From positions 1 through 10,637 of the IMG/VR virus record IMGVR_UViG_2529292908_000010: a stretch of 10,637 nucleotides of DNA; one strand, 5' to 3'. The notes under the pieces were generated by a model, which was not told the origin of the DNA, ran no database searches, and was given only the letters and a program-made list of their open reading frames with translations. The DNA is from a virus. Its lineage: Duplodnaviria > Heunggongvirae > Uroviricota > Caudoviricetes. This document shows, piece after piece, positions 1 through 10,637 of this stretch (its first letter is position 1; the number at the start of each line of letters is the position of its first letter). The position numbers and the translations under genes are program-made.

Positions 1-1119
1 TCAAATAACCAACTTAACCCATTCCTGACCTCGAGTATCGTTATAGCGATCGGTGGTAGCCTGGACTTTATGTCCCAGTAATGTTTTTGTATCGACACCC
101 TGTGCGCGGTACAACCGTTCTGACAGGGAGCGTTGTTCATGAAATGTTGGCGGTGTTTTTCCTGCTGGTGGAATTATTCCAGCCAGATCTCGCGCTTTGG
201 CGAAGTAATCGCTCAGGTTGTCTTTACTCATCGGTTTTGGTTGTTTCTGGTGCCTACTATGGATTAGGTATGGACTCAACATTCTGTCCCTGCATCCATC
301 AATAACTTCTTTTAACGATACCCCAATTTCATCGCATCGTAGCCTAAGAGGTAAGGCCAGACGCATTCCGGTTTTTCCTTGGGTTATATGTAGATGTCCA
401 TTCCATACATCTGAAAAACGCATGTGGCAAATGTCATCACGGCGCTGACCAGTAACAATCGCAAGAAGCATTGCGTTACGGATAAAGTGTTTTTCTGGCG
501 TTGCATTATAAATTTTTTGCCAGTCTTCCAGGGTGAGTCTGGATCTGGTCACTTTAGGGATCGGTTTACGGGTAGCCTCCGGAGGATTCCATCCAGGAGG
601 AACTTCTCCCGCATGCTGTGCTTCTTTATAAATATCAACCCATAATCCGCGATTTACTCTTGCTGTGCTGACCATGTCTTTATCCATCCACTCGTCCAGT
701 ATTAATGCAAAGTCTCTTACCTCCAGTTCTTTCAATGGGTGGTTTCCCAGGCGGGAAACCAGGTATGCAGCCATTCGCACTTTTTCTTTGTGGGTTGTAG
801 CTGCAATGTCTCCATTTTTCAGTCGCGAATCCTGTATTTTCAGATATCGATCAACCCATGCCTTTAATCTGATACCCCGACGTTTTGTTGCTGATGGACT
901 TTCATCAATTTTGCGCATGAAATATTCTGCTTCTGCTGCAGCTATTCGCTGATTGGCTGTTGCAGCGATTTTTTCTGCCTTGACTTTGTCTGTCCCAAGT
1001 CCGTGAAATTTTCCAGTCACAGGATTTTTATACTGGTAGTAAACCTTGCCAGTTCTGCGATCAAATTTTTCGTAAAGAGCTGCTACGTCAGTACTGTTTT
1101 TTCGTGGCCTCGGTGACAT
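1..1119 (-). CDS. int: Tyrosine site-specific recombinase, lambda Int family (prophage integrase)
   Basis: Complete 372-aa ORF, ATG at 1119-1117 and TAA at 3-1. Collinear with lambda Int from memory, including the HxxR box (TFHEQRSLSERLY) and C-terminal catalytic Tyr region (ATTDRYNDTRGQEW). First gene at the window edge, as at a prophage left end. Confidence 0.93.
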   Translation of the reverse strand: MSPRPRKNSTDVAALYEKFDRRTGKVYYQYKNPVTGKFHGLGTDKVKAEKIAATANQRIAAAEAEYFMRKIDESPSATKRRGIRLKAWVDRYLKIQDSRLKNGDIAATTHKEKVRMAAYLVSRLGNHPLKELEVRDFALILDEWMDKDMVSTARVNRGLWVDIYKEAQHAGEVPPGWNPPEATRKPIPKVTRSRLTLEDWQKIYNATPEKHFIRNAMLLAIVTGQRRDDICHMRFSDVWNGHLHITQGKTGMRLALPLRLRCDEIGVSLKEVIDGCRDRMLSPYLIHSRHQKQPKPMSKDNLSDYFAKARDLAGIIPPAGKTPPTFHEQRSLSERLYRAQGVDTKTLLGHKVQATTDRYNDTRGQEWVKLVI

Positions 1120-1357
1120 GGGTTAAAATCTCCTTCAGTGCGTCATCATCGCCAGTATGAATTTCCGGCGCAATTCCAGCTTCACCCGGTCCAACAAAGA
1201 CTGCGCGGCGATCTATTAGCCAGCGACCACGAATTTTTTGTGGTCTTGGTACGATGTATCCAAGTTTTCCGTATTTCACCAGGGTAGTGTTTGTTATTGG
1301 GAGACTGAACCGCTTAGGTTTCCACTCGTCGAGCGTAATCAGGTACTGTTCGCTCAT
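1088..1357 (-). CDS. xis: Excisionase (Xis-like)
   Basis: Small ORF directly upstream of int, overlapping its start by 32 nt as in lambda xis-int. N-terminus MSEQYLITLDEW resembles lambda Xis (MYLTLQEW...). ATG at 1357 has GGAG 8 nt upstream; the ORF track starts at an in-frame GTG at 1366, so the start is uncertain. Confidence 0.75.
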   Translation of the reverse strand: MSEQYLITLDEWKPKRFSLPITNTTLVKYGKLGYIVPRPQKIRGRWLIDRRAVFVGPGEAGIAPEIHTGDDDALKEILTHVTEATKKQY

Positions 1358-1418
1358 GACCATCACTCCGGAACGCGCCAGTTGCAGAATACCAACTACA
1401 ACCGGCGACGGTTGAACA

Positions 1419-3890
1419 TTAAAAATCAGCCTGACTCGGGATCAGTTTTTGCCAGATAACTGAAACGTATTTTGCCTGGTAACGGGCGTCATCAAGTGCA
1501 TTATGGCGCTCACCTTCGAATGGAATAGCCGTTCTGGCATCGAAGTCTATGGCTTTCCCCAGCTCAACGATTGTGCGTACATCGCGATCGTTGTAGTAAC
1601 GCCACGGGCAGGGGATCCCCTGCCGTTCGTATGAACGGCGCAAAATCGTGTTTTCGAAGTTGGCTCCATTTCCCCAGACCTGAACAAAAAATTCACCGGA
1701 GTTTTCGTCGATAAATTCCCGCAATTGTAACAGTGCATCATCTAACGGGATTTCATCGGTCATAATGGCAGACTGCGCTTCACGTGATTGCTTCAGCCAC
1801 CTTTTAATGACGTCACGATCAATGACTCCGCCAGCAGTTTCCAGATCGATAGTCTTACTAAATTCCGGTCCCATATCTCCGGTTTGCGGATCGAAAAATA
1901 TTGCATCTATTGAGATAATCGGGGCATCAGGATTTTTGCCCATTGTTTCAAGGTCAATCATCAGATGGTGCCACAACCTGCTGGTGGATGTGCTTTTACG
2001 ATGACCGTTCACCTTAATTAAGGGATTTGCTGTCTCGCCTATTTCATTATTGTCATTGGCATGTTGATCGCCTTCGGTGCACTCCTTGTTCGGGAGTCCG
2101 GCACTTTCTATTTCCTCTGGATCTTTTTCCCGGGCTTCATCCTGGCTTTCTTCGTTGAATGTCTCCTGGTAGGTTGCGTCACCCATCACTGCGCCACAAT
2201 CAGGGCAGTTACCACCACCAGTCTGATTGCATGCGGTACAAACTTTTTCCTCTTCCTGTTGCACGACTGGTTCAGGTTGTTTCGTTTCTGGCTCGTTTTG
2301 TAACGCATTTTGGCTGTTTTGTTCCGCTTTTTGGTCGTACTGTTCCGTTTCTGACTGGTTCTGGTGCACAGAATCGCGGGTTTCAATCCCCTTCACCCAT
2401 TTCGGATCATTCGGGTCGCTAATCCCTTCAACAAATTCACCACGTGATGCAGCGAGCAACTTATTAGCGTCAGGCTGGCTGATACTGGCTGCCTGCATAA
2501 TTTTGTTTACTTCGTCAGCGGTAACTTTTACCAGGTCTGGTTGTGCGGTCGTGTCAGATGCATCAGTATTTTGTTGTGAACCTGTGTATGTGCCGTTTTT
2601 GCGGGCAAAATATTCTTCTTTCGTGATTTCAGTTGCCCCGGCAGCCAGCGCCTTATCCAGACCAGAAAGTTTGTTTGCGCGACCGTATTTTTCGCCATCC
2701 TTGTCGGTGAAGAGGAAGTAGAACGGCCCCTCACGCTCTACAGATGGTTCGACTTCCACTTTGCATTCGGTTTTTTCGTTGTCCGGCATTGCCGTTTCCA
2801 CTGCATCAGCTTCTGGTACTGGCGACGGGAGAGTATTAGTTGTGCTCTGATTTGTTCCTTCATCTTCAAACACGCCCTTTGTAGTCAGGTATTCAGTGAT
2901 GTATTTGTTCAGCGCCACGGGATCTTTGTGAATGTCGATCGGACGTTCACGGACAAGGCCAAAAATAGTCTGACGGTCATAGCCAAGTGCTTCAGGCTGT
3001 TTGCGCATTGATGCCGAGATACGCTTCCAGTCTTCGCGGTCGTTGTCGATAACTTCATTTTTTGCCCAGCGATGGATGCTGCCGTCAATGTTTCCGGCAT
3101 CCACATCACCAGGCCAGAGAGCGTAGGCCAGTTCGTCATCCAGTGTTTTCCATGTCTGCTTGTATTCGCGATGAATGGCAGCAATGACCGGGCTGATTTT
3201 TCCTGTTGAATTTTCAGTGTGCTGTTGATTGGTTCTGGCGCGGGCGAGATCAACAACAGACGTGTATTTTCCTGTTTCCTTGCGTTCACCTTCGCGACGT
3301 TTTTTCCAGATGCGCATCTCTGCCTGAATTTCGGGCCATTTGGCACTAGGCTTACATTTATGCTTAACCCACCCGATGGCATGCAGCTTAAGCTCCGGAT
3401 ACATGGCGTTAACTTCTGGCATTTTCATCAACGCTTCAACGATATGTCCGTCGAATGTTGCCATGTCTTCCTGCAACAATTCCTGTGCGCTAATAACCAT
3501 ATCAACGGTGATGTTTTCACATGTGTCGAACTTAACCATGACAGCGTTCTGTACTTCAGGGGCCAGCTTGTCAAAAGTGACGTTCATCGGATCGGATTCA
3601 GTCTCAACCGGGACAAAGGAAGCAGACTCCTCATCCCAGCGGTTTTCCTGCATATATTCAGCATCCCATGAATCGAGGGCAGGGCGGGGTATGCCAGGTT
3701 TATCCTCGCAGACAATAAATTTATAAGCGCAGTCCTGAGCAGCCGGATAATGTTCCAGGAATTGCCAGTGAAATTTTGCTCGAGCACGGCGTTCGTCGCC
3801 AGCTTCAATGGCTGTGGCTACAGCCACAGCGCCTTCTTCCCTTGTTGCCAGTTCGTCAGGAATAGCGGCGCAAATAAAGACTTTACTCAT
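1419..3890 (-). CDS. Large early-left exonuclease (exodeoxyribonuclease VIII-like) with C-terminal DEDDh/DnaQ-like 3'-5' exonuclease domain and internal Cys4 zinc ribbon
   Basis: 823-aa ORF, ATG at 3890-3888, TAA at 1421-1419. C-terminal motifs MIDLETMG (Exo I), VWGNGANFEN (Exo II-like) and ERHNALDDARYQ (Exo III, H-x4-D). Central C-x2-C-x7-C-x2-C (CTACNQTGGGNCPDC) inside an acidic Q/E/N-rich stretch. Occupies the recE position upstream of xis-int. Family call is from motifs and memory, not a search. Confidence 0.85.
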   Translation of the reverse strand: MSKVFICAAIPDELATREEGAVAVATAIEAGDERRARAKFHWQFLEHYPAAQDCAYKFIVCEDKPGIPRPALDSWDAEYMQENRWDEESASFVPVETESDPMNVTFDKLAPEVQNAVMVKFDTCENITVDMVISAQELLQEDMATFDGHIVEALMKMPEVNAMYPELKLHAIGWVKHKCKPSAKWPEIQAEMRIWKKRREGERKETGKYTSVVDLARARTNQQHTENSTGKISPVIAAIHREYKQTWKTLDDELAYALWPGDVDAGNIDGSIHRWAKNEVIDNDREDWKRISASMRKQPEALGYDRQTIFGLVRERPIDIHKDPVALNKYITEYLTTKGVFEDEGTNQSTTNTLPSPVPEADAVETAMPDNEKTECKVEVEPSVEREGPFYFLFTDKDGEKYGRANKLSGLDKALAAGATEITKEEYFARKNGTYTGSQQNTDASDTTAQPDLVKVTADEVNKIMQAASISQPDANKLLAASRGEFVEGISDPNDPKWVKGIETRDSVHQNQSETEQYDQKAEQNSQNALQNEPETKQPEPVVQQEEEKVCTACNQTGGGNCPDCGAVMGDATYQETFNEESQDEAREKDPEEIESAGLPNKECTEGDQHANDNNEIGETANPLIKVNGHRKSTSTSRLWHHLMIDLETMGKNPDAPIISIDAIFFDPQTGDMGPEFSKTIDLETAGGVIDRDVIKRWLKQSREAQSAIMTDEIPLDDALLQLREFIDENSGEFFVQVWGNGANFENTILRRSYERQGIPCPWRYYNDRDVRTIVELGKAIDFDARTAIPFEGERHNALDDARYQAKYVSVIWQKLIPSQADF

Positions 3891-3985
3891 TTTGTTTTAA
3901 CCTCATTACAGATTTCAGGGTGAACGAATCCCTGCCATTGCTGGCATTTTTAATCCGTTGGTATGGCGTTAATATGGCTGGCGGG

Positions 3986-4174
3986 TTATCCAGCCGGTAT
4001 TGCGTTATTCAGGTTCAGCGATACTTTTTTTAACGGGAGGCATTCACCGGGGATTTTTTGTTCGTCCCTTACCTGAATGCAGGATGACTTACTGTCATAA
4101 ATTCCGGTAATCACATTTTGTGGCTCACCCGTTATAAGAAAAACGGTCATCACCAGTGCAAATGCTGAAGTCAC
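3986..4174 (-). CDS. Hypothetical small protein (62 aa), hydrophobic N-terminus
   Basis: ORF with GTG start at 4174-4172 overlapping the upstream stop (GTGA), GGAG 7 nt upstream. N-terminus MTSAFALVMTVFLITG is hydrophobic. No recognisable family; AT-rich context. Confidence 0.4.
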   Translation of the reverse strand: MTSAFALVMTVFLITGEPQNVITGIYDSKSSCIQVRDEQKIPGECLPLKKVSLNLNNAIPAG

Positions 4175-4359
4175 TGCTGTTCTCCGATAATACCAAGTTC
4201 AAGAAGGGCAATTCTGGAAAGTATGGAATTATCATTGAGAAGATAAGGTTCATATTTTCTCATCTTAATGGCATCTTCCGTAAACTCCCGGTTACTGAGC
4301 AGAACACCAATATCAAAACAACCTTCAGACGTATTAACGTTTGGTAATAACGTTTCCAT
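4171..4359 (-). CDS. Hypothetical small protein (62 aa)
   Basis: ATG at 4359-4357 with GAGGA 7 nt upstream; stop overlaps the start of the next ORF. No recognisable family. Confidence 0.45.
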   Translation of the reverse strand: METLLPNVNTSEGCFDIGVLLSNREFTEDAIKMRKYEPYLLNDNSILSRIALLELGIIGEQQ

Positions 4360-4376
4360 TATCGCGTCCTCAACAA

Positions 4377-4537
4377 TGAATTTTGTGATGCGGTGCCTGG
4401 TGCCTCCAGGTGACGTTAACCAGTTAACAATTAACGCCGGAATACAGAAGGATGCCCGTTACGCCCCGTAAAAGACCACTTTACGGTTTTAACTGTTCCG
4501 CGTGCGCATAGCCGCATTCACCGCATCACAAAATTCA
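4377..4537. repeat. Perfect 19-bp inverted repeat pair flanking a 123-bp palindrome-rich segment
   Basis: TGAATTTTGTGATGCGGTG at 4377-4395 and its exact reverse complement CACCGCATCACAAAATTCA at 4519-4537. Interior holds further palindromes (CCTGG-tgcct-CCAGG at 4396-4410; GTTAAC-cag-TTAAC at 4415-4428). Confidence 0.7.
4466..4490 (+). terminator. Terminator-like hairpin followed by TTTT (plus strand)
   Basis: CCGTAAA (4466-4472) pairs with TTTACGG (4480-4486), 7-nt loop, then TTTT at 4487-4490. Stem is AU-rich and no confident plus-strand gene lies upstream. Confidence 0.25.
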
Positions 4538-4835
4538 CTTTAAAAAGGGTGGCAGAGCAGTCACGGAGTAGAACTGATGCCACCAAATACTACACATGGG
4601 TATTGTGGCGGGGCTGTCACTTAAGCGTATGGTCAACCTGACGACCCGGTGCATTTTCTGGAGCAATGGAGGAAGCCCCAGCCATACTTACCGCCGCGCC
4701 ATTTCGCGGACTGCCACAACCGGAAGTGCACGGTCGAAGAAATTTAACGACAAGCCTTATATGCAAAGGAATCTCGCCGTGCGCTTTCGTGTTGTGTGCC
4801 TGCTTTTAACCACGTCAGGCGAGGTGGTTTCCGTC

Positions 4836-4864
4836 ATTCCCCAATAACAGGAAATCTGTATAAT
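4836..4864 (+). promoter_or_regulatory. Putative sigma70 promoter for the rightward membrane-protein gene
   Basis: Perfect -10 TATAAT at 4859-4864 preceded directly by TG; -35 is poor (ATTCCC/TTCCCC). Lies 35 bp upstream of the SD-ATG at 4898. Confidence 0.3.
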
Positions 4865-4897
4865 CTGGATATCCCCAACAACAGGAAGGTGTTTTAT

Positions 4898-5056
4898 ATG
4901 GTGGTTCAAAAGAATTGTTCAGGTACTGGTAAGCCTGCGGACAGGGCGGACATTCCGAATACCAGGAAACATATACCTGAGAAAAACATTCGACCAAAAC
5001 CATCTCCAGCTCCTTCAGAGGAGAGGGGGAACAGCAACAATCAAACAAGCAGGTGA
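4898..5056 (+). CDS. Hypothetical small hydrophilic protein (52 aa)
   Basis: ATG at 4898 with AGGAAGG 8 nt upstream; stop 7 nt before the next ATG. Pro-rich, low-complexity product and not in the track under this start, so it may instead be a leader region. Confidence 0.3.
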   Translation: MVVQKNCSGTGKPADRADIPNTRKHIPEKNIRPKPSPAPSEERGNSNNQTSR

Positions 5057-5062
5057 TGATAT

Positions 5063-5509
5063 ATGGACCGGGATGATATTCTTGACAGGGTTTTATATGG
5101 TTATTTTCTTGAACAACTATTCTCTGTAGCGACTGGTCGTCTCGATAAACTTTTCTCAGTGGTGAGTATTATCCTCGGTTCATCTGTCATTGGTGGATTT
5201 ATTCCTGAAGTTTCTGGAGTTCTCATCGTTGTGATAGCAACCGTTCAAACGATTTACGGATTCGGACAAAAGTCAGGTAACGCAATGAGAAAATCCGCAG
5301 AATATCTGCAGCTTTATGATGATGCAGAAAAATATTCCGATTCGGAATTGAAAATGCAGTTAAAGCTCCTGGAAAAAACAGATGATAATATTTGGTCGTC
5401 GCTTAAAGATATCGCAATCTTAAAAACCCAGATCAAAATAGGAATCTCCGTAGAACAACAAGAGAAACTGTCTGCAAAATCCAAATTGATGCGATTCCTT
5501 TGTGGTTAG
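5063..5509 (+). CDS. Small membrane protein, putative superinfection-exclusion / abortive-infection protein (SieB-like by architecture and position)
   Basis: 148-aa ORF, ATG at 5063 with AGGTGA 6 nt upstream. Two predicted TM helices (LFSVVSIILGSSVIGGFI; VLIVVIATVQTIYGF) then a charged helical tail. Rightward gene set among leftward early genes, as sieB is in lambda/Rac. Confidence 0.7.
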   Translation: MDRDDILDRVLYGYFLEQLFSVATGRLDKLFSVVSIILGSSVIGGFIPEVSGVLIVVIATVQTIYGFGQKSGNAMRKSAEYLQLYDDAEKYSDSELKMQLKLLEKTDDNIWSSLKDIAILKTQIKIGISVEQQEKLSAKSKLMRFLCG

Positions 5510-5607
5510 GAATACCCAGATTGTTAAAGAGCATGCCGAATGCTTACCCGTGTCCGGCGAACGTATTCCACTTCGCCTGTGGAGAACTCTTTAATTACTA
5601 ACCTTCA

Positions 5608-5760
5608 TCAGTCAGAGTTTCTTGCTAACCAGCGATGCGCGCCAGCTTCAGTTTTAAACGTTTTGCTTCTGGTATACGTCATCGCGGTAAACGTGCCGTC
5701 CTGGTTAGGGAACACACCACATACCAGAGATTCGTTGTTGCCAAGATTGAGCATATCCAT
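5608..5760 (-). CDS. Small hypothetical prophage protein (50 aa), YdaF/YdfA-like by size and position
   Basis: ATG at 5760-5758 with GAGG 5 nt upstream, TGA at 5610-5608. Product MDMLNLGNNESLVCGVFPNQDGTFTAMTYTRSKTFKTEAGAHRWLARNSD is not compositionally biased. Below the 60-aa track cutoff; translated by hand. Confidence 0.45.
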   Translation of the reverse strand: MDMLNLGNNESLVCGVFPNQDGTFTAMTYTRSKTFKTEAGAHRWLARNSD

Positions 5761-5933
5761 GTTGACCTCATTTCCCCTTAACGCCGGGTCGCGGAACTAA
5801 AAACCTGCTGCGCTGTTATACAAAGTGTTCCCGCCGTCATGTTCATACGCCTCGGGCTGGCTACTTAACCCCTGACCACTGCCGGGTAACTCTAGGTATT
5901 GCCTGGCGTTCTGTGGGACGGGGTGGTGAAGTT

Positions 5934-5963
5934 AGTTTATACAAAAATAAACTAAACAGCCAA
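5934..5963 (-). promoter_or_regulatory. Putative leftward early promoter (pL-like) with overlapping 20-bp operator-like palindrome
   Basis: Minus strand: -35 TTGGCT (5963-5958), 16-nt spacer, -10 TATAAA (5941-5936). Palindrome AGTTTA-N8-TAAACT at 5953-5934 overlaps the -10. Lies just downstream of the parE terminator. Confidence 0.4.
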
Positions 5964-5984
5964 TATGTAACTTAACGCTTTGGC

Positions 5985-6010
5985 GTAAATAACCCCCTTT
6001 TGAGAGGGGG
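5985..6010 (-). terminator. Rho-independent terminator of the repressor/toxin-antitoxin operon
   Basis: Minus strand: GC-rich stem CCCCCT/AGGGGG (6010-5993) followed by UUAUUUA (5992-5986), 16 nt after the parE stop. Confidence 0.55.
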
Positions 6011-6025
6011 CTTTGCTTCGGGGGA

Positions 6026-6313
6026 TTAAGGTGTTACAGGGAACTGTCGGCGGGCGTGAACTACGTTAACAATTTCAATGCCTGAAATTGTCACGCGGTA
6101 CAGTATTATGTAATTGGGGTGGGCTACAATTTCACGTAAACCGGGTACTCTGTCGCTTGGCGGGTATAAATACGGATGCTCAGATAATGGCAGAACGCAA
6201 GTCCTTAAGCGTTTCCACAAACGTTCTGCCGCATCTATGTCAAAACGTGCAATATAGCTGGTTATCTCATCTAGGTCGGTATCTGCGCTTTCAAGCCATA
6301 ACACGGGTAACAT
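6026..6313 (-). CDS. parE: ParE/RelE-superfamily toxin (ParE2-like)
   Basis: 95-aa ORF with RelE/ParE hallmarks (REIVAHPNYIILYRV...IEIVNVVHARR). ATG at 6313-6311 abuts the stop of the upstream antitoxin gene (TAA-ATG). Confidence 0.9.
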   Translation of the reverse strand: MLPVLWLESADTDLDEITSYIARFDIDAAERLWKRLRTCVLPLSEHPYLYPPSDRVPGLREIVAHPNYIILYRVTISGIEIVNVVHARRQFPVTP

Positions 6314-6505
6314 TTACTGTTTGCTCCGTTCCTTGCGCATTTTTGCAAAGCGTTCTGCCATTCTGCGTTCAACTTCGTCATGAGGAATAGCTGGACGTGG
6401 ATCAGCTAGGCTCGCGGCCACTTTTGCACGCAACCATTGGTTATAACTATTTTCTTGCTCGACGGTTTCAAATTCAGAAACCATTGGTGAAAGGGCTGTG
6501 TTCAT
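6314..6505 (-). CDS. paaA2: PaaA2-like antitoxin
   Basis: 63-aa ORF directly upstream of and coupled to parE, GAGG 6 nt before the ATG. Sequence (MNTALSPMVSEFETVEQENSYNQWLRAKVAASLADPRPAIPHDEVERRMAERFAKMRKERSKQ) matches my recollection of E. coli O157 PaaA2; recollection unverified. Confidence 0.8.
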   Translation of the reverse strand: MNTALSPMVSEFETVEQENSYNQWLRAKVAASLADPRPAIPHDEVERRMAERFAKMRKERSKQ

Positions 6506-6542
6506 ATGGTGAACCTCATCTTGTAAGTGCTGGTAAATCGGC

Positions 6543-6716
6543 CTAGGTAACTTTCTGTTGTGCTTCTAGCCACCTTGCAACTATACGATCCATTGCCTCT
6601 TTTTTCTCCTTCATATCTTTTAGCATTTGCTGTTGATCTTCCTCTGGAAATGCGTCAAATGTTTGAAGTAGTTCTTTTTGCCTAGGGGTTATTTTTAATA
6701 TACCCTGTGCCCTGTC
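6543..6716 (-). other. -1-frame continuation encoding the C-terminal domain of the PaaR2-like regulator
   Basis: From the slippery site the -1 frame reads DRAQGILKITPRQKELLQTFDAFPEEDQQQMLKDMKEKKEAMDRIVARWLEAQQKVT*, homologous to the C-terminal domain of the 6925..7338 gene. This frame opens only 4 codons before the slip site and has no usable start. Confidence 0.5.
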
Positions 6717-6937
6717 TTTTTTTCTTCATTTAATGGTAAGAAAAACCAATACTGAGGAAATCCCGTTACTTCAGATAGTTTATCTAGATTAGCTGCTGTA
6801 GGGCTTGAGATACCACAAACCCACCTTTGGACGGATTGTTGAGCAATACCAATTCTGCGCGCAAGTTCTGCTTGACTCCAGCCTTTTGTCAATAGAAGCA
6901 TCTTAATTCTAAGAGCACTAATTTCTAGTACGCCCAT
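6695..6937 (-). CDS. XRE-family HTH regulator, N-terminal part of a PaaR2-like regulator
   Basis: 80-aa ORF with classic XRE motif (LTKGWSQAELARRIGIAQQSVQRWVCG), first gene upstream of the antitoxin. Ends 5 codons after an A_AAA_AAG heptamer, beyond which the conserved C-terminal domain continues in the -1 frame. Confidence 0.75.
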   Translation of the reverse strand: MGVLEISALRIKMLLLTKGWSQAELARRIGIAQQSVQRWVCGISSPTAANLDKLSEVTGFPQYWFFLPLNEEKKTGHRVY

Positions 6938-7338
6938 TTGATATCTCTTGTTTTAGTATGTCTCTCGTCAGGCTCGGCGACCTTGCTGCGCCAACCAACG
7001 TGCAACAAGATCTTCCATTGCCTCTTTTTGTTTCTTAGTTCTTTTATGATCTCCTGCTGCTCATTATCAGGAAATGCACTAAATATTTGTAGCAATTCCA
7101 ATTGGTTAGGGGTTAATGCTATAGGTCTTGATGGCGGAGCTCCTGTTATGTCTTCTGGCTCAATATCAAGATAACCCCCTGGCATCCCATATGTTTGTTC
7201 AATACGTCTAGCCGCCTTTTCGCCAAACGTAGCTTTACCGCTCATTAATTGAGATAAGTAACTTTTCTCTTTAGGTGGCAAAGTCCTGTCTTTGAACCAC
7301 TCTTTGAGGCGTAAACGCCGAATCTCTTTTGTTTCCAT
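6925..7338 (-). CDS. Repressor-position HTH regulator (cI/RacR positional analogue), paralogous to the PaaR2-like regulator
   Basis: 137-aa ORF from ATG 7338 (track starts at GTG 7344), divergent from the Cro-like gene. N-terminal phage-repressor-like HTH (SYLSQLMSGKATFGEKAARRIEQTYGMPGGYLD); C-terminal domain (TPNQLELLQIFSAFPDNEQQEIIKELRNKK) homologous to the 6543..6716 segment. No SD, consistent with leaderless translation. Confidence 0.8.
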   Translation of the reverse strand: METKEIRRLRLKEWFKDRTLPPKEKSYLSQLMSGKATFGEKAARRIEQTYGMPGGYLDIEPEDITGAPPSRPIALTPNQLELLQIFSAFPDNEQQEIIKELRNKKRQWKILLHVGWRSKVAEPDERHTKTRDIKWAY

Positions 7339-7344
7339 ATACAC

Positions 7345-7373
7345 ATTATCTTTAGTAATTGCAAAATAAGCAA
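7345..7373 (-). promoter_or_regulatory. Putative pRM-like promoter giving a leaderless repressor mRNA
   Basis: Minus strand: -35 TTGCTT (7373-7368), 17-nt spacer, -10 GATAAT (7350-7345), placing the start site at or next to the A of the ATG at 7338. Motif-based only. Confidence 0.35.
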
Positions 7374-7377
7374 ATGC

Positions 7378-7407
7378 TTGACTAGTTTGTTTAGTTGTGT
7401 ATAAACT
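7378..7407 (+). promoter_or_regulatory. Putative pR-like promoter with overlapping 20-bp operator-like palindrome
   Basis: -35 TTGACT (7378-7383), 16-nt spacer, -10 TATAAA (7400-7405). Palindrome TGTTTA-N8-TAAACT at 7388-7407 overlaps the -10, 16/20 identical to the one at 5934-5953. Confidence 0.5.
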
Positions 7408-7439
7408 TTATGTGTTCTAAATGTGCAGAGATAAAAGTT

Positions 7440-7721
7440 ATGACGTTAAAGGAATTCATCAAATCATTAAAAACTGGAGAAGCCAAAAAATTTGCGGCCA
7501 ACCTTGGTGTGTCTCCGTCCTTCTTATCCCAAATGGCATCTGGAAATTCACCTGTGTCTCCTGTTCGTGCGTTGATGATAGAAGCTGAAACAGGAGGACA
7601 TGTTACAAGACGAGAGTTGAGGCCTAATGACTGGGAGCTTATATGGCCTGAATACACTGGAAGCACGCCTCCTTCACGTCACAAATATGAACTTAACTCC
7701 AAAAAGCTGATGGGGGGGTGA
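7440..7721 (+). CDS. Cro-like HTH protein (YdaS-type)
   Basis: 93 aa from ATG 7440 (upstream in-frame ATGs fall inside the promoter). Cro/YdaS-like motif KKFAANLGVSPSFLSQMASGNSPVSPVRALMIEAETGGHVTRRELRPNDWELIWPEY. Divergent from the repressor gene. Confidence 0.8.
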   Translation: MTLKEFIKSLKTGEAKKFAANLGVSPSFLSQMASGNSPVSPVRALMIEAETGGHVTRRELRPNDWELIWPEYTGSTPPSRHKYELNSKKLMGG

Positions 7722-7724
7722 TTC

Positions 7725-8162
7725 ATGAAAATCAAGCATGAGCACATCCGTATGGCGATGAATGCGTGGCTGCTTTATCCGAGAGTGGGGCGCAAAAAAA
7801 TCGCTGATGATATAGCAACAGCATATTTTGAGCTTGAAATGACTTATCCACCAATGCATGACACCTCTACGACAGAGGGTATTGGATTGAACATACAAAA
7901 TATTTTTCGCTGGCTTGAAAAGGATACGCCTGATGCTGTTGAAAAAATTCAGGCACTAATTCCGGCGATCCTGACTGTTCTTCCGCGTGAACTGCGTTAT
8001 CACCTCAGTATTTTTGACACTGTTGAGCGCCGTGCATTACTGGCGGCGCAGGAAGCGTTGAGCACGGCAATTGATGCACATGATGATGCAGTCCAGGCCG
8101 TTTACCGGAAAGCGTATTTCAGCGACGGCGGGTCATCCGGCGAGTCTGTTGTGGTGCATTGA
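7725..8162 (+). CDS. YdaT-family protein (CII-position regulator)
   Basis: 145-aa ORF starting 3 nt after the Cro-like stop, G-rich SD upstream. Size, sequence character and position match Rac YdaT-type proteins. Confidence 0.85.
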   Translation: MKIKHEHIRMAMNAWLLYPRVGRKKIADDIATAYFELEMTYPPMHDTSTTEGIGLNIQNIFRWLEKDTPDAVEKIQALIPAILTVLPRELRYHLSIFDTVERRALLAAQEALSTAIDAHDDAVQAVYRKAYFSDGGSSGESVVVH

Positions 8163-8248
8163 TATTTATGCCAGACCCCTGCTGATTCTGTTGATTGGGG
8201 AATCACAGAATATCACCAGAGGATGGTTCGTCACAAGATGAGGCAATT

Positions 8249-9262
8249 ATGGCCGCATTACCATACATGCAACTGTACATAGCTGATTACCTGGCTGACA
8301 CCATGCATTTGTCTGCAGAGGAGCACGGCGCGTATTTGTTGCTGATGTTTAATTACTGGCAAACAGGGAAACCAATACCTAAAAACAGGCTGGCAAAAAT
8401 TGCCCGTCTGACTAACGAGCGATGGGCTGATGTTGAACCATCCTTGCGGGAGTTTTTTTGCGATAACGGCGATGAATGGGTGCATCTTCGGATTGAGGAA
8501 GATCTGGCATCAGTCAGGGAAAAATTAACCAAAAAATCAGCCGCCGGAAAAGCATCTGTTCAGGCCAGAAGAAGCAGAAAGGAAGCATATGTTCAAACAA
8601 AACAAGAGAGAGATTTAACAGGTGTTCAAACAAATGTTGGTGTTGTGTTTGAACATGACGCAAACACAAAAGCAACTAATAAAGATACAGATCTAAAAGA
8701 ATTAAACCCCACACATAACGTGCGTGAGCGCGAGAGTATTCCGACCAGTGAGTTGCATGGTGCGCCGTTGCAGACAGCCGAACCTGAATACCTGGACGGC
8801 CTGAGCGAACCGATCGGGAAATTTTCGATGACCACTGTCTGGCAGCCGTCGCCGGATTTTCGACAACGGGCAGCAGTGTGGGGTATGGCTCTGCCTGAGC
8901 CGGAATTTACACCTGCTGAACTTGCCGCCTTCAGGGACTACTGGGCAGCTGAGGGGAAAGTTTTTACGCAGGTTCAGTGGGAGCAGAAATTCGCCCGTCA
9001 CGTAAATCACGTCAGGGCGCAGGTTAAACCAGTCAGCAAGGGGGTGCGTCATGCAGCAGCACCAGGTGGCACCGCATCACGGGCAGTTCGGGAAATTCGG
9101 GCAGCACGTGAGCAGTGGGAACGTGAAAACGGATTTGTCAGCGACGGAAACGGCGTGGAAGCTGTGGGAGCTCATGGGGGAGGTTTATTCAAACCGCTGG
9201 ACTCAGAAGAACGGGGCCGCACCTTCGAAGCTCTGGATTGCCCAGATTGGCGCGATGACTGA
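8249..9262 (+). CDS. Replication initiation protein (lambda O positional analogue; YdaU/DUF1376-like N-terminal domain)
   Basis: ATG at 8249 with GAGG 5 nt upstream (track starts at TTG 8195). N-terminal domain YMQLYIADYLADTMHLSAEEHGAYLLLMFNYWQTG is YdaU/DUF1376-like. Iteron-like repeats sit in the interdomain linker. The last ~70 codons overlap the P-like ORF and are low-complexity, so the true 3' end is uncertain. Confidence 0.8.
   Translation: MAALPYMQLYIADYLADTMHLSAEEHGAYLLLMFNYWQTGKPIPKNRLAKIARLTNERWADVEPSLREFFCDNGDEWVHLRIEEDLASVREKLTKKSAAGKASVQARRSRKEAYVQTKQERDLTGVQTNVGVVFEHDANTKATNKDTDLKELNPTHNVRERESIPTSELHGAPLQTAEPEYLDGLSEPIGKFSMTTVWQPSPDFRQRAAVWGMALPEPEFTPAELAAFRDYWAAEGKVFTQVQWEQKFARHVNHVRAQVKPVSKGVRHAAAPGGTASRAVREIRAAREQWERENGFVSDGNGVEAVGAHGGGLFKPLDSEERGRTFEALDCPDWRDD
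8590..8655. repeat. Iteron-like repeats (candidate replication origin) inside the O-like gene
   Basis: TGTTCAAACAAA at 8590-8601 and 8623-8634 (direct), TGTTTGAACA at 8646-8655 (inverted copy of the 10-mer core), followed by an A-rich stretch at 8661-8700. Confidence 0.4.
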
Positions 9263-9716
9263 ACAGCAAATCAGGCTGGTCTGCCGTCAGTGCATGGACC
9301 GCTGCCGGGCGGGTGAAACGTGGCCCCCGGACCTGGCTGAGTTTGTTGCGCTGATTTCGGAGAGTGGGGCAAATCCATTTGGTCTTACGGTGGATGCCGT
9401 GATGGAAGAGTACCGGCGCTGGCGCAATGAATCCTGGCGGTACGACGGGAGTGATAAATACCCGTGGCCACAGCCTGTGCTGTACCACATTTGCCTCGAG
9501 ATGCGCACCAGAGGGATTGAACGTCAGATGACTGAAAGTGAGCTGAAACGACTTGCAGAACGACTGTTGACCAAATGGGCAAAGAATGTTGGTAACGGCA
9601 TGAGTGTTCCGCCAGTGCGACGACAACTGGAAGGGCCAAAACACCCGCCAGGGCCAACGCCAATTGAGTTACTGAAACAGGAATATGAGCGCCGGAAAGC
9701 GGCTGGTTTTGTCTGA
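9051..9716 (+). CDS. Lambda P-like replication protein (helicase loader)
   Basis: 221-aa ORF, ATG at 9051 with AGGGGG SD. Collinear with lambda P from memory (WPPDLAEFVAL vs PSPGQFVAWC; YPWPQPVLYH...ELKRLAERLL vs YPWKSNAHYW...ELRRKAADEL). Start uncertain; internal ATG at 9174 is possible. Confidence 0.8.
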   Translation: MQQHQVAPHHGQFGKFGQHVSSGNVKTDLSATETAWKLWELMGEVYSNRWTQKNGAAPSKLWIAQIGAMTEQQIRLVCRQCMDRCRAGETWPPDLAEFVALISESGANPFGLTVDAVMEEYRRWRNESWRYDGSDKYPWPQPVLYHICLEMRTRGIERQMTESELKRLAERLLTKWAKNVGNGMSVPPVRRQLEGPKHPPGPTPIELLKQEYERRKAAGFV

Positions 9717-9749
9717 ATTTGAGAAATGATTTTGTCGGAGGAAATTTTA

Positions 9750-10463
9750 ATGGAAACCGTTTTTGACGCACTGAAAGCACTGAAAAGAGCCTCTTCACAG
9801 GAGGTGTCGGCCCGCCTTGGAATCAGCCGCGAAGATGCTGTCAACGAGCTGTGGAAGCTGAAACGCCGTGGTGAAGCAGATAACAAGGGGTCGATGTGGT
9901 GGCTGACGATTGAGGCAACTGAAATGGTCACAAAAACCACTGCGGAGATGCTGATTAACTCAATTGAACAGCATGGTCCTCAGTCGGCTGACGAACTGGC
10001 GTTAATGTTCGGGATTACCTCCCGCCGGGCGAATTCAACGCTGGCAATGGCAATAAGCAAAGGTCGTCTGATTCGAGTAAATCAGAACGGTAAATTTCGT
10101 TACTGCCTGTCGGGCGATAATTTACCAGCAGAGCCGAAAGCTGCATCGGTAACGGAAACTGCTGGTAAAGCCTTTCCTCAGACAGCAGGTGTTGCGTTAC
10201 CAGTCCGGGAAGCGGAAACACAGGAAGAAATTAAAACTGAAAGTGTGGCGGTCACAGTGCAGTCACAGCCGTCGTTCACCAGAAAGCATCCGGATAGTCT
10301 GATTTTACCATCGCTGCATGTGGCTAACCGCGAACTGCGCCGGGCAAAAGGTCAGGTTCAGAAGTGGGAGCGAGTCTGTGCTGCGCTGCGTGAGCTGAAC
10401 AAGCACCAGGATATTGTTCGACAGATTGTCGATTCCTCCAGTCGTATTGTGTCGGAAAAGTGA
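9750..10463 (+). CDS. Hypothetical protein with two winged-helix-like segments
   Basis: 237 aa from ATG 9750 with GGAGG 8 nt upstream (track start 9726 has no SD). Two HTH-like segments ([28 protein letters not shown]; [32 protein letters not shown]). Sits directly after the P-like gene. Confidence 0.75.
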
Positions 10464-10478
10464 TTGCCGGAGGTACTT

Positions 10479-10637
10479 ATGGCAAGAGTATTTACACAGG
10501 AAGAGCGGGAAGAAGTGAAGGCGCGCATTGTGGAATTCGTGCGCCTGAGCGGACGAGAAACTTTTCGACAACTGGCAGATAAAACGGGTGTCAGTAAGAC
10601 CGCTATTCGTCGTTTACCCAATCAAAAGCAGGGGTGA
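10479..10637 (+). CDS. Small hypothetical protein (52 aa) with HTH-like segment
   Basis: ATG at 10479 with GGAGG 7 nt upstream; TGA at 10635-10637 is the last codon of the window. Product MARVFTQEEREEVKARIVEFVRLSGRETFRQLADKTGVSKTAIRRLPNQKQG. Below the track cutoff; translated by hand. Confidence 0.5.
   Translation: MARVFTQEEREEVKARIVEFVRLSGRETFRQLADKTGVSKTAIRRLPNQKQG

Follow-up and report, generated by a model that had tools for sequence, protein, structure and literature searches.

A probable 212-nucleotide dual-coding overlap between replication initiator and helicase-loader genes in a lambdoid prophage

The window analyzed in the present study, a 10,637-nucleotide (nt) stretch of viral DNA (Caudoviricetes; IMG/VR record IMGVR_UViG_2529292908_000010, positions 1 to 10,637), covers the early region of a Rac-like/lambdoid Escherichia coli prophage, in which a replication-initiator-like gene (337 amino acids, aa; 8249–9262) is followed by a gene for a lambda-P-like helicase loader, P (221 aa in its long form; 9051–9716); both lie on the + strand, as do all features described within them. 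Judged from comparative sequence data, the two genes are likely to share a genuine, evolutionarily maintained overlap of 212 nt (9051–9262), with P starting at ATG 9051. The overlap is conserved across genera, both of its frames are under constraint, and the long P start has a conserved Shine-Dalgarno (SD) site and ATG, which upholds one of the readings offered by a first-pass annotation made from the window sequence alone, namely that the long overlap is real.

Layout and conservation of the overlap

The initiator open reading frame (ORF) extends from 8195 to 9262, with its first ATG at 8249 and its stop codon, TGA, at 9260–9262. In the 212 nt that it shares with P, codon position 1 of P coincides with codon position 2 of the initiator, and the shared stretch encodes initiator residues 268–337 and the stop, together with P residues 1–70 and two bases of codon 71. 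The ORF list and translations agree with the first-pass annotation that both frames are open over 9051–9262, there being no stop in either frame across 9051–9259.

We compared the window with 37 loci from different species (38 sources in all; P identity 43–95%), drawn from Escherichia, Citrobacter, Klebsiella, Pectobacterium, Serratia, Erwinia, Yersinia, and other genera. An intact overlap of 149–242 nt is kept in 34 of the 38 sources (for one locus, L108, the SD-supported start was used), and in all 34 the initiator ORF ends 65–137 nt, mostly 101–116 nt, past the codon for P residue 38. Citrobacter phage Chris1, a viable isolated phage, has the same layout as the window. Homologues in which the initiator ends near the P start in another frame, a case that the first-pass annotation had envisaged, were not found among the intact loci.

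The expectation by chance was estimated by shuffling, with the amino acids of one protein held fixed and synonymous codons redrawn from local usage. With the P amino acids fixed, the initiator frame stays open across the overlap in about 3% of the trials per genome, and in the converse design, with the initiator protein sequence held constant, an open P frame is retained in about 20–30% of them, compared with open frames in all 34 intact real genomes; the corresponding summed log10 probabilities over the 34 genomes are −54 and −23.6, values that overstate the significance because the genomes are related and not phylogenetically independent. For the distal half of the overlap, again with the P amino acids fixed, the initiator frame is open in about 20% of the trials (summed log10 probability of −14 over 20 thinned lineages with a median pairwise P identity of 45%). 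Despite the kinship of the genomes, the direction of the result is clear: in divergent relatives, the two frames are kept open beyond chance.

Variation among close relatives (50 distinct sequences, 83–96% nucleotide identity) provides additional evidence that both frames are constrained. At P codon position 3, diversity drops 3.5-fold, from 0.197 downstream of the overlap to 0.057 within it (p = 1.7e-6); at initiator codon position 3, it drops 5-fold, from 0.121 in the upstream DnaT domain to 0.024 in the overlap (p = 9.5e-6); and over all sites, it is 0.029 in the overlap vs 0.074 and 0.088 in the flanks. The DnaT segment has an ordinary coding pattern in these relatives, with diversity peaking at codon position 3 (0.12). 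Within the overlap, the two halves behave differently: over 9051–9161 the most variable phase is initiator position 3 and the P amino acids change freely, and over 9162–9259 variation is found at P position 3 only. The initiator frame dominates the constraint at 9080–9139 and the P frame at 9126–9251. At deep divergence, the fraction of identical codons at P synonymous sites is raised to 0.64 for residues 2–34, with a level of about 0.44 elsewhere.

An extension of the initiator ORF past a true end near 9050 by a frameshift, an indel, or read-through, as the first-pass annotation had allowed, is difficult to reconcile with the recurrence of the C-terminal tail, its motifs, and its stop position in 34 genomes of many genera, distant ones included, or with the 50 close relatives, in which the sole indel within the overlap is 3 nt long and none breaks the frame. 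In addition, the phrog_3992 profile covers the initiator from end to end (residues 1–337 to positions 2–345 of 345), and the chance of an open initiator frame is about 0.03 per genome. Although the tail is rich in Gly, Ala, Arg, and Glu, as off-frame translations often are, and degraded copies of the module exist elsewhere, we give next to no credence to an artefact of this kind. The degraded copies are those of Leclercia NCTC13032 (L119:2938–3647), where the P-frame N-terminus of an ORF switches to the initiator-frame tail at a G-run (…AWHLWQVMG followed directly by GNILEPVDAEEW…) through either a 1-nt indel or a homopolymer assembly error, and of Candidatus Symbiopectobacterium (L123), which has internal stops.

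We also considered programmed recoding, in which a +1 shift from the initiator into the P frame would yield an initiator-loader fusion protein. Phrog_15931 (482 positions) is matched both by the initiator (residues 93–336 to positions 107–347) and by P (residues 3–221 to positions 280–482), some annotated phage proteins join the two, and in one of them, P0105 (385 aa, 10 member sequences), initiator-like sequence (…QWEQKFARH…) runs in one frame into P-like sequence (…WALWELMTKIYGQRWIAKNG…). The joined proteins examined nevertheless look like deletions or degraded copies (in P0091, an in-frame deletion joins the initiator to the C-terminal half of P), and fused ORFs are found in 0 of 124 loci. 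Furthermore, the initiator frame of the overlap has no X XXY YYZ slippery heptamer (sites for the required +1 shift were not searched systematically), the G5 run at 9176 lacks conservation, no stimulatory context was recognizable, and P has a conserved SD site and ATG of its own, so that a recoded fusion seems extremely improbable.

The start of the loader gene

P is a member of the lambda P family: the PF06992 profile matches residues 59–188 with 57.8 bits (cut-off 26), and the phrog_109 profile ("P-like helicase loader") matches residues 19–220 to positions 22–235 of 236 (E = 6.7e-62); a role in DnaB binding and loading is predicted from this family. The protein aligns in length with lambda P (221 vs 233 aa), as had been claimed from the window alone. 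The AlphaFold2 model, for which 33 homologues (45–93% identity) were aligned, matches the full-length lambda P chain 9oa1_Z in Foldseek over 215 columns (E = 5.6e-6, with a template modeling score of only 0.45) and has the four-part layout of lambda P, with an N-terminal lasso, domain II, domain III, and a C-terminal lasso. In lambda P itself, domain I (residues 1–29) is an intrinsically disordered lasso and domain II comprises approximately residues 30–119 (PMC12661323).

In the model, residues 1–27 (9051–9131), which are poorly conserved and, by analogy, may be equivalent to lambda P domain I, are disordered, with a predicted local distance difference test score (pLDDT) below 50. They are followed by confident helices at 26–46, 48–54, and 60–67, which are predicted to open domain II (residues 26–67, 9126–9251; pLDDT about 87); helices run from residue 26 to residue 181, and there is a C-terminal helix at 204–217. 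Pairwise identity over residues 26–67 is 52%, equal to that over the remainder of P, and residues 35–68 (AWxLWExMGEIYSNRWxxKNGxxPSxLWIAQIG) are conserved as strongly as the remainder across the 33 homologues, with W50, K53, N54, G55, and W62 invariant.

The good SD site noted in the first-pass annotation is AAGGGGG at 9038–9044, located 6 nt 5′ of ATG 9051, with a calculated duplex energy of −11.8 kcal/mol against the 3′ end of 16S rRNA. It lies inside the initiator coding frame, where it is read as Lys-Gly-Val in the window and as Gly-Gly (GGAGG) in many homologues; in most other lineages, the long-start ATG follows a GGAGGT-like site, for which the calculated duplex energies are mostly −7 to −12 kcal/mol. 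Within a 15-codon window, an ATG and an SD site of −7 kcal/mol or better occur together in 16 of the 20 thinned lineages, compared with 1.7% of background windows (equal windows in the same relative frame elsewhere in initiator genes). In the 34 intact genomes, the P frame is open from an ATG located 24–35 codons 5′ of residue 35, and in many of them the preceding in-frame stop is only a few codons before this ATG. The ATG also leaves a trace in the initiator frame, where xAT-Gxx encodes a conserved dipeptide (His/Asn/Tyr, then Ala/Val/Glu) that often follows Gly-Gly and has variable neighbors.

The first-pass annotation had suggested ATG 9174 (M42; 9174–9176) as an alternative P start, which would give a 180-aa loader and an 89-nt overlap and leave 9051–9173 untranslated or as part of a minor isoform. 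M42 is conserved in about 90% of the homologues, it is the start used in some 180–181-aa entries that carry the NCBI name "replication protein P" (Salmonella, Citrobacter, Klebsiella), the phrog_33198 profile begins there, and the residues that would be lost include 2–27, which are barely conserved. The GGGAG just 5′ of this ATG is a weak SD site (about −6 kcal/mol); moreover, it is only 2–3 nt from the ATG and is forced by conserved Trp-Glu codons. A start at M42 would also leave the conserved W36 and W39 upstream, cut the predicted helix 26–46 in half, and account neither for an upstream ATG and SD site that are conserved far above background nor for an upstream frame that is open in every intact genome, and lambda P has an equivalent N-terminal domain I. 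We therefore consider 9174 unlikely as the start of the main product, take 9051 as the main P start, and retain M42 as a possible secondary start.

Even further downstream, the model used by RefSeq and the Prokaryotic Genome Annotation Pipeline (PGAP) starts P at ATG 9255 (M69), in the sequence ATGACTGA (9255–9262), which overlaps the initiator stop by 8 nt; P would then be a 153-aa protein whose translation is coupled to the initiator stop, and the upstream open frame would be a by-product. ATG-N-TGA is generally known as a common coupling arrangement. Short overlaps are also the dominant kind (PMC3887535), and P is annotated in this way in RefSeq E. coli genomes and in phage Rac-SA53. Yet a conserved downstream start, as expected for a short translationally coupled overlap of the ATGA or ATGnnTGA type, is not found at ATGACTGA: the site is without an SD (−3.1 kcal/mol), and many homologues have Leu, Phe, or Cys as residue 69 (codon TTG, CTG, TTC, CTC, TGC, or TGT in distant ones). 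The 30 residues that precede M69 are among the most conserved of P and include five invariant positions, and the residues before M69 match both the lambda-P-like profile and the lambda P structure. A start at 9255 would remove three predicted helices, corresponding approximately to lambda P residues 30–80 of domain II, and deletion of residues 9–86 abolishes the function of lambda P (PMC3640518). Already contradicted by these comparative data, the 9255 start is very improbable.

Public annotations of P are heterogeneous. RefSeq/PGAP and the Rac-SA53 record have the 153-aa form with the 8-nt overlap, the PPompW and Chris1 records start P still further downstream, with no overlap, and other gene callers give forms of either 221–223 or 180–181 aa; because lengths are thus mixed among databases and gene callers, the P boundary is unsettled in public data. 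All annotated records examined (the RefSeq E. coli records L003–L006, and L001, L002, and L125) shorten P to 136–153 aa, by which the overlap is avoided or kept minimal, and in 4 of the 4 RefSeq records the loader is annotated 68 residues short. Of 5426 complete E. coli genomes, 1253 contain a homologue of this stretch with at least 80% identity, and the N-terminal truncation of P in RefSeq is probably systematic. One copy, 92% identical, is carried by prophage Sp11 of E. coli O157:H7 Sakai. Given the overlap and the evidence for coding upstream of M69, the 153-aa RefSeq protein is most likely P truncated by 68 residues and, according to the model, would be without the three predicted helices, about half of domain II.

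How the long P start would be reached was considered at the level of RNA. Folding around the P start (8990–9110) gives no significant structure (z = −1.4), and the idea that a structure masks the SD site and couples P translation to that of the initiator was dropped for this reason. A promoter scan of 7600–9800 gives no sigma-70-like site, so that an internal P promoter is not indicated. With neither an RNA structure nor a promoter detected near the P start, internal initiation on a polycistronic mRNA is the most economical explanation. A single polycistronic early mRNA would carry the initiator and loader genes; ribosomes translating the initiator would continue to the TGA at 9260–9262, and other ribosomes would initiate at the internal SD site and ATG 9051, one base out of phase, and make the full-length 221-aa loader. 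Between 9051 and about 9130, conservation would lie with the initiator tail, the disordered P lasso riding along; between about 9130 and 9259, it would lie with the helices that open P domain II, and the acidic, Gly-rich end of the tail would ride along.

It should be noted that several observations, in addition to the kinship of the genomes, weigh against a maintained overlap with a long P. The mean pairwise identity of P residues 2–27 is 18%, and their translation is suggested by maintenance of the ORF, by the conserved SD site and ATG, and by the analogy to lambda P domain I. P is shorter in RefSeq/PGAP and in the GenBank phage records examined. Same-codon identity at deep divergence is not raised for P residues 35–70 (0.449, vs 0.39–0.48 elsewhere), such that lowered variation at the synonymous positions of each frame, seen in the close relatives, is found at deep divergence for P residues 2–34 and not for 35–70. 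The case for selection on the distal tail is consequently made by three observations: the avoidance of stops, the lower third-position diversity in close relatives, and the codon bias at K53, where AAG is used in 17 of 20 lineages compared with a background of 34% (p = 3.7e-6) and is read as Glu instead of Lys by the initiator. Much of the distal motif, EPLDxEE[R/W], is forced by the conserved P RWTQKNG codons. Finally, that the tail and P form one co-inherited cassette, in which the tail recruits the loader, is a function that we infer.

The initiator tail and the genes that carry it

The initiator consists of a DUF1376 domain (PF07120, residues 5–87, 91.7 bits), a variable linker, a DnaT-type single-stranded DNA-binding domain (PF17948, residues 192–258, 62.5 bits; 8822–9022), which is the last single-coding part before the overlap, and the 70-residue tail. 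Solved DnaT structures match the protein with E = 6e-20. In the Pfam search, DUF1376 and DnaT were the only matches to the window initiator, and the Phage_rep_O profile (PF04492) gave none; the label "O-like" used in the first-pass annotation thus holds by position and not by family. The same annotation described the tail as Gly/Ala-rich and low-complexity. Among its 70 residues there are indeed 10 Ala and 10 Gly, as well as 8 Arg and 8 Glu; even so, the tail is not without features, since two motifs in it are conserved. The proximal one, (E/A)SxAxQQIRAAREqWE, corresponds to RAVREIRAAREQWERENGFV in the window (residues 278–297, 9080–9139) and is common to different initiator body types, and the distal one, which follows the pattern G..G.N(L/I)xEPLDxEE(R/W), corresponds to GGGLFKPLDSEERG (residues 310–323, 9176–9217).

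The bodies that carry the tail are diverse, comprising DUF1376 with DnaT, DnaT alone, DUF1376 without DnaT, Phage_rep_O (PF04492, in the relatives L102 and P0146), HTH_36/DnaD_N with a lambda-O-like C-terminal segment, and proteins with no Pfam match; no body type departs from the others in its tail motifs or in its overlap with P. In L105, a lambda-O-like C-terminal segment directly precedes the tail. An exhaustive HMMER search with an 80-aa tail query yielded 24 representatives of about 317–360 aa, every one with the tail at its C-terminus; a word-indexed search of proteins, run with this query too, was uninformative, its hits being 8 partial E. coli fragments.

Two Erwinia genomes (L111:2926–3552 and L120:2974–3543) have a P-like gene without an upstream initiator, and in both the N-terminal extension of P is open; the other forward frames across the P N-terminal region contain no ORF of at least 50 codons. 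These P-like genes adjoin an ORF resembling an ordinary host gene, L120 having a 535-aa ORF as well, and they could be domesticated loaders similar to DopE or the remains of prophages. The presence of a shared tail on varied bodies, together with these initiator-less loci, indicates that the tail and P behave as one unit.

The C-terminal part of lambda O recruits lambda P. By analogy, recruitment of the loader, or of the loader-DnaB complex, may be the task of the initiator tail, and since the tail is embedded in the loader gene, the matched pair would stay together when recombination swaps the origin-binding body. We tentatively suggest that the overlap could be a linkage device of this kind, with the tail as a loader-specific adaptor peptide of which at least the distal half was overprinted on the N-terminus of an ancestral P-type loader, a possibility to which we attach limited confidence. 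If the tail-loader pair is always carried through body swaps, the occurrence of one tail on initiators as different as the Phage_rep_O, DUF1376/DnaT, HTH_36/DnaD_N, and unclassified types would follow.

Three further features of the window were recorded. First, the C-terminus of lambda O (L124:1000–1086) ends in …KLDLTNTDWIYGVDL and the tails (9224–9259 in the window) end in …ALDCPDWRDD or …ALDGADWEFD; the LD…DW pattern near the C-terminus that they have in common could be a shared short acidic/aromatic partner-binding motif or a coincidence. Second, TGTTCAAACA occurs three times in the initiator linker, twice in direct orientation (8590–8599 and 8623–8632) and once inverted (8646–8655), within a stretch of low GC content (8589–8680, 33–38%); the arrangement resembles the iterons and AT-rich region of ori-lambda, which lies inside gene O, and the copies are candidate iterons. 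Among close relatives, 8589–8680 is hypervariable in all three codon phases (diversity 0.25–0.29) and has many indels. Third, the gene content of the window includes a lambda-type integrase, an exonuclease-domain protein, DicB, a ParE toxin, a helix-turn-helix (HTH) repressor, and YdaS- and YdaT-like genes, after which come the initiator, the P-like loader, and a DUF1627 gene; the ParE-family toxin gene (6026–6313, − strand) and its neighbors, together with the DicB gene (4171–4359, − strand), lie in the immunity/early-left region.

Related systems and significance

In gene order and roles, an origin-binding initiator followed by a DnaB loader, the module resembles the lambda O-P pair; P is co-linear with lambda P, and some Phage_rep_O initiators bear a tail of the window type. 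The two systems differ in that lambda O and P overlap by 4 bp, a figure quoted in the first-pass annotation and confirmed here, whereas about 70 initiator codons lie over the P N-terminus in the window, and in that the window initiator has DUF1376 and DnaT instead of Phage_rep_O. Long same-strand, out-of-frame dual coding is well known from other phage genes, such as lambda Rz/Rz1 and phiX174 A/B/K and D/E. The lambda Rz and Rz1 products are physical partners. Rz1 lies entirely within Rz, in contrast to the window genes, which overlap only at their ends, are concerned with replication, and have an overlap that moves as a cassette on different upstream bodies. In phiX174, "terminal overlaps" are a recognized class (PMC8227390).

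Among domesticated genes, the lambda-type pair DopC/DopE, in which DopC joins an HTH domain to a C-terminal DnaT motif and the partner, DopE, is P-like (PMC5509034), has the same domain vocabulary as the window module but differs from it in that no overlap is reported (PMC5509034) and in that its genes are chromosomal and domesticated rather than prophage-borne. An early report, as cited in PMC3640518, describes a longer lambda O′ read-through product that ends in the P N-terminal coding region. As far as that citation describes it, this product resembles the window arrangement in that the initiator frame would be translated over the start of P, and differs from it in that read-through of a stop is needed in lambda, with unclear significance, whereas in the window the normal ORF itself extends this far. 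Beyond its stop, the lambda O frame has no similarity to the window tail. Our literature searches, which included locus tags and accessions, found no description of the overlap reported here.

Overlaps of more than about 60 bp between same-strand genes are, as a rule, treated as errors when prokaryotic genomes are annotated (PMC3887535). The one described here is a well-supported exception, in which the constraint is clearly divided between the two frames. Because the loader is annotated 68 residues short, work on such loaders would start from a truncated protein. Lambda O constructs with 35 or 62 extra codons into P are toxic (PMC3640518), a toxicity that may merit another look, given that such an extension is the norm in the window family. 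If the tail does recruit the loader, the module would provide a testable picture of how mosaic phages keep initiator and loader compatible while exchanging origin specificity.

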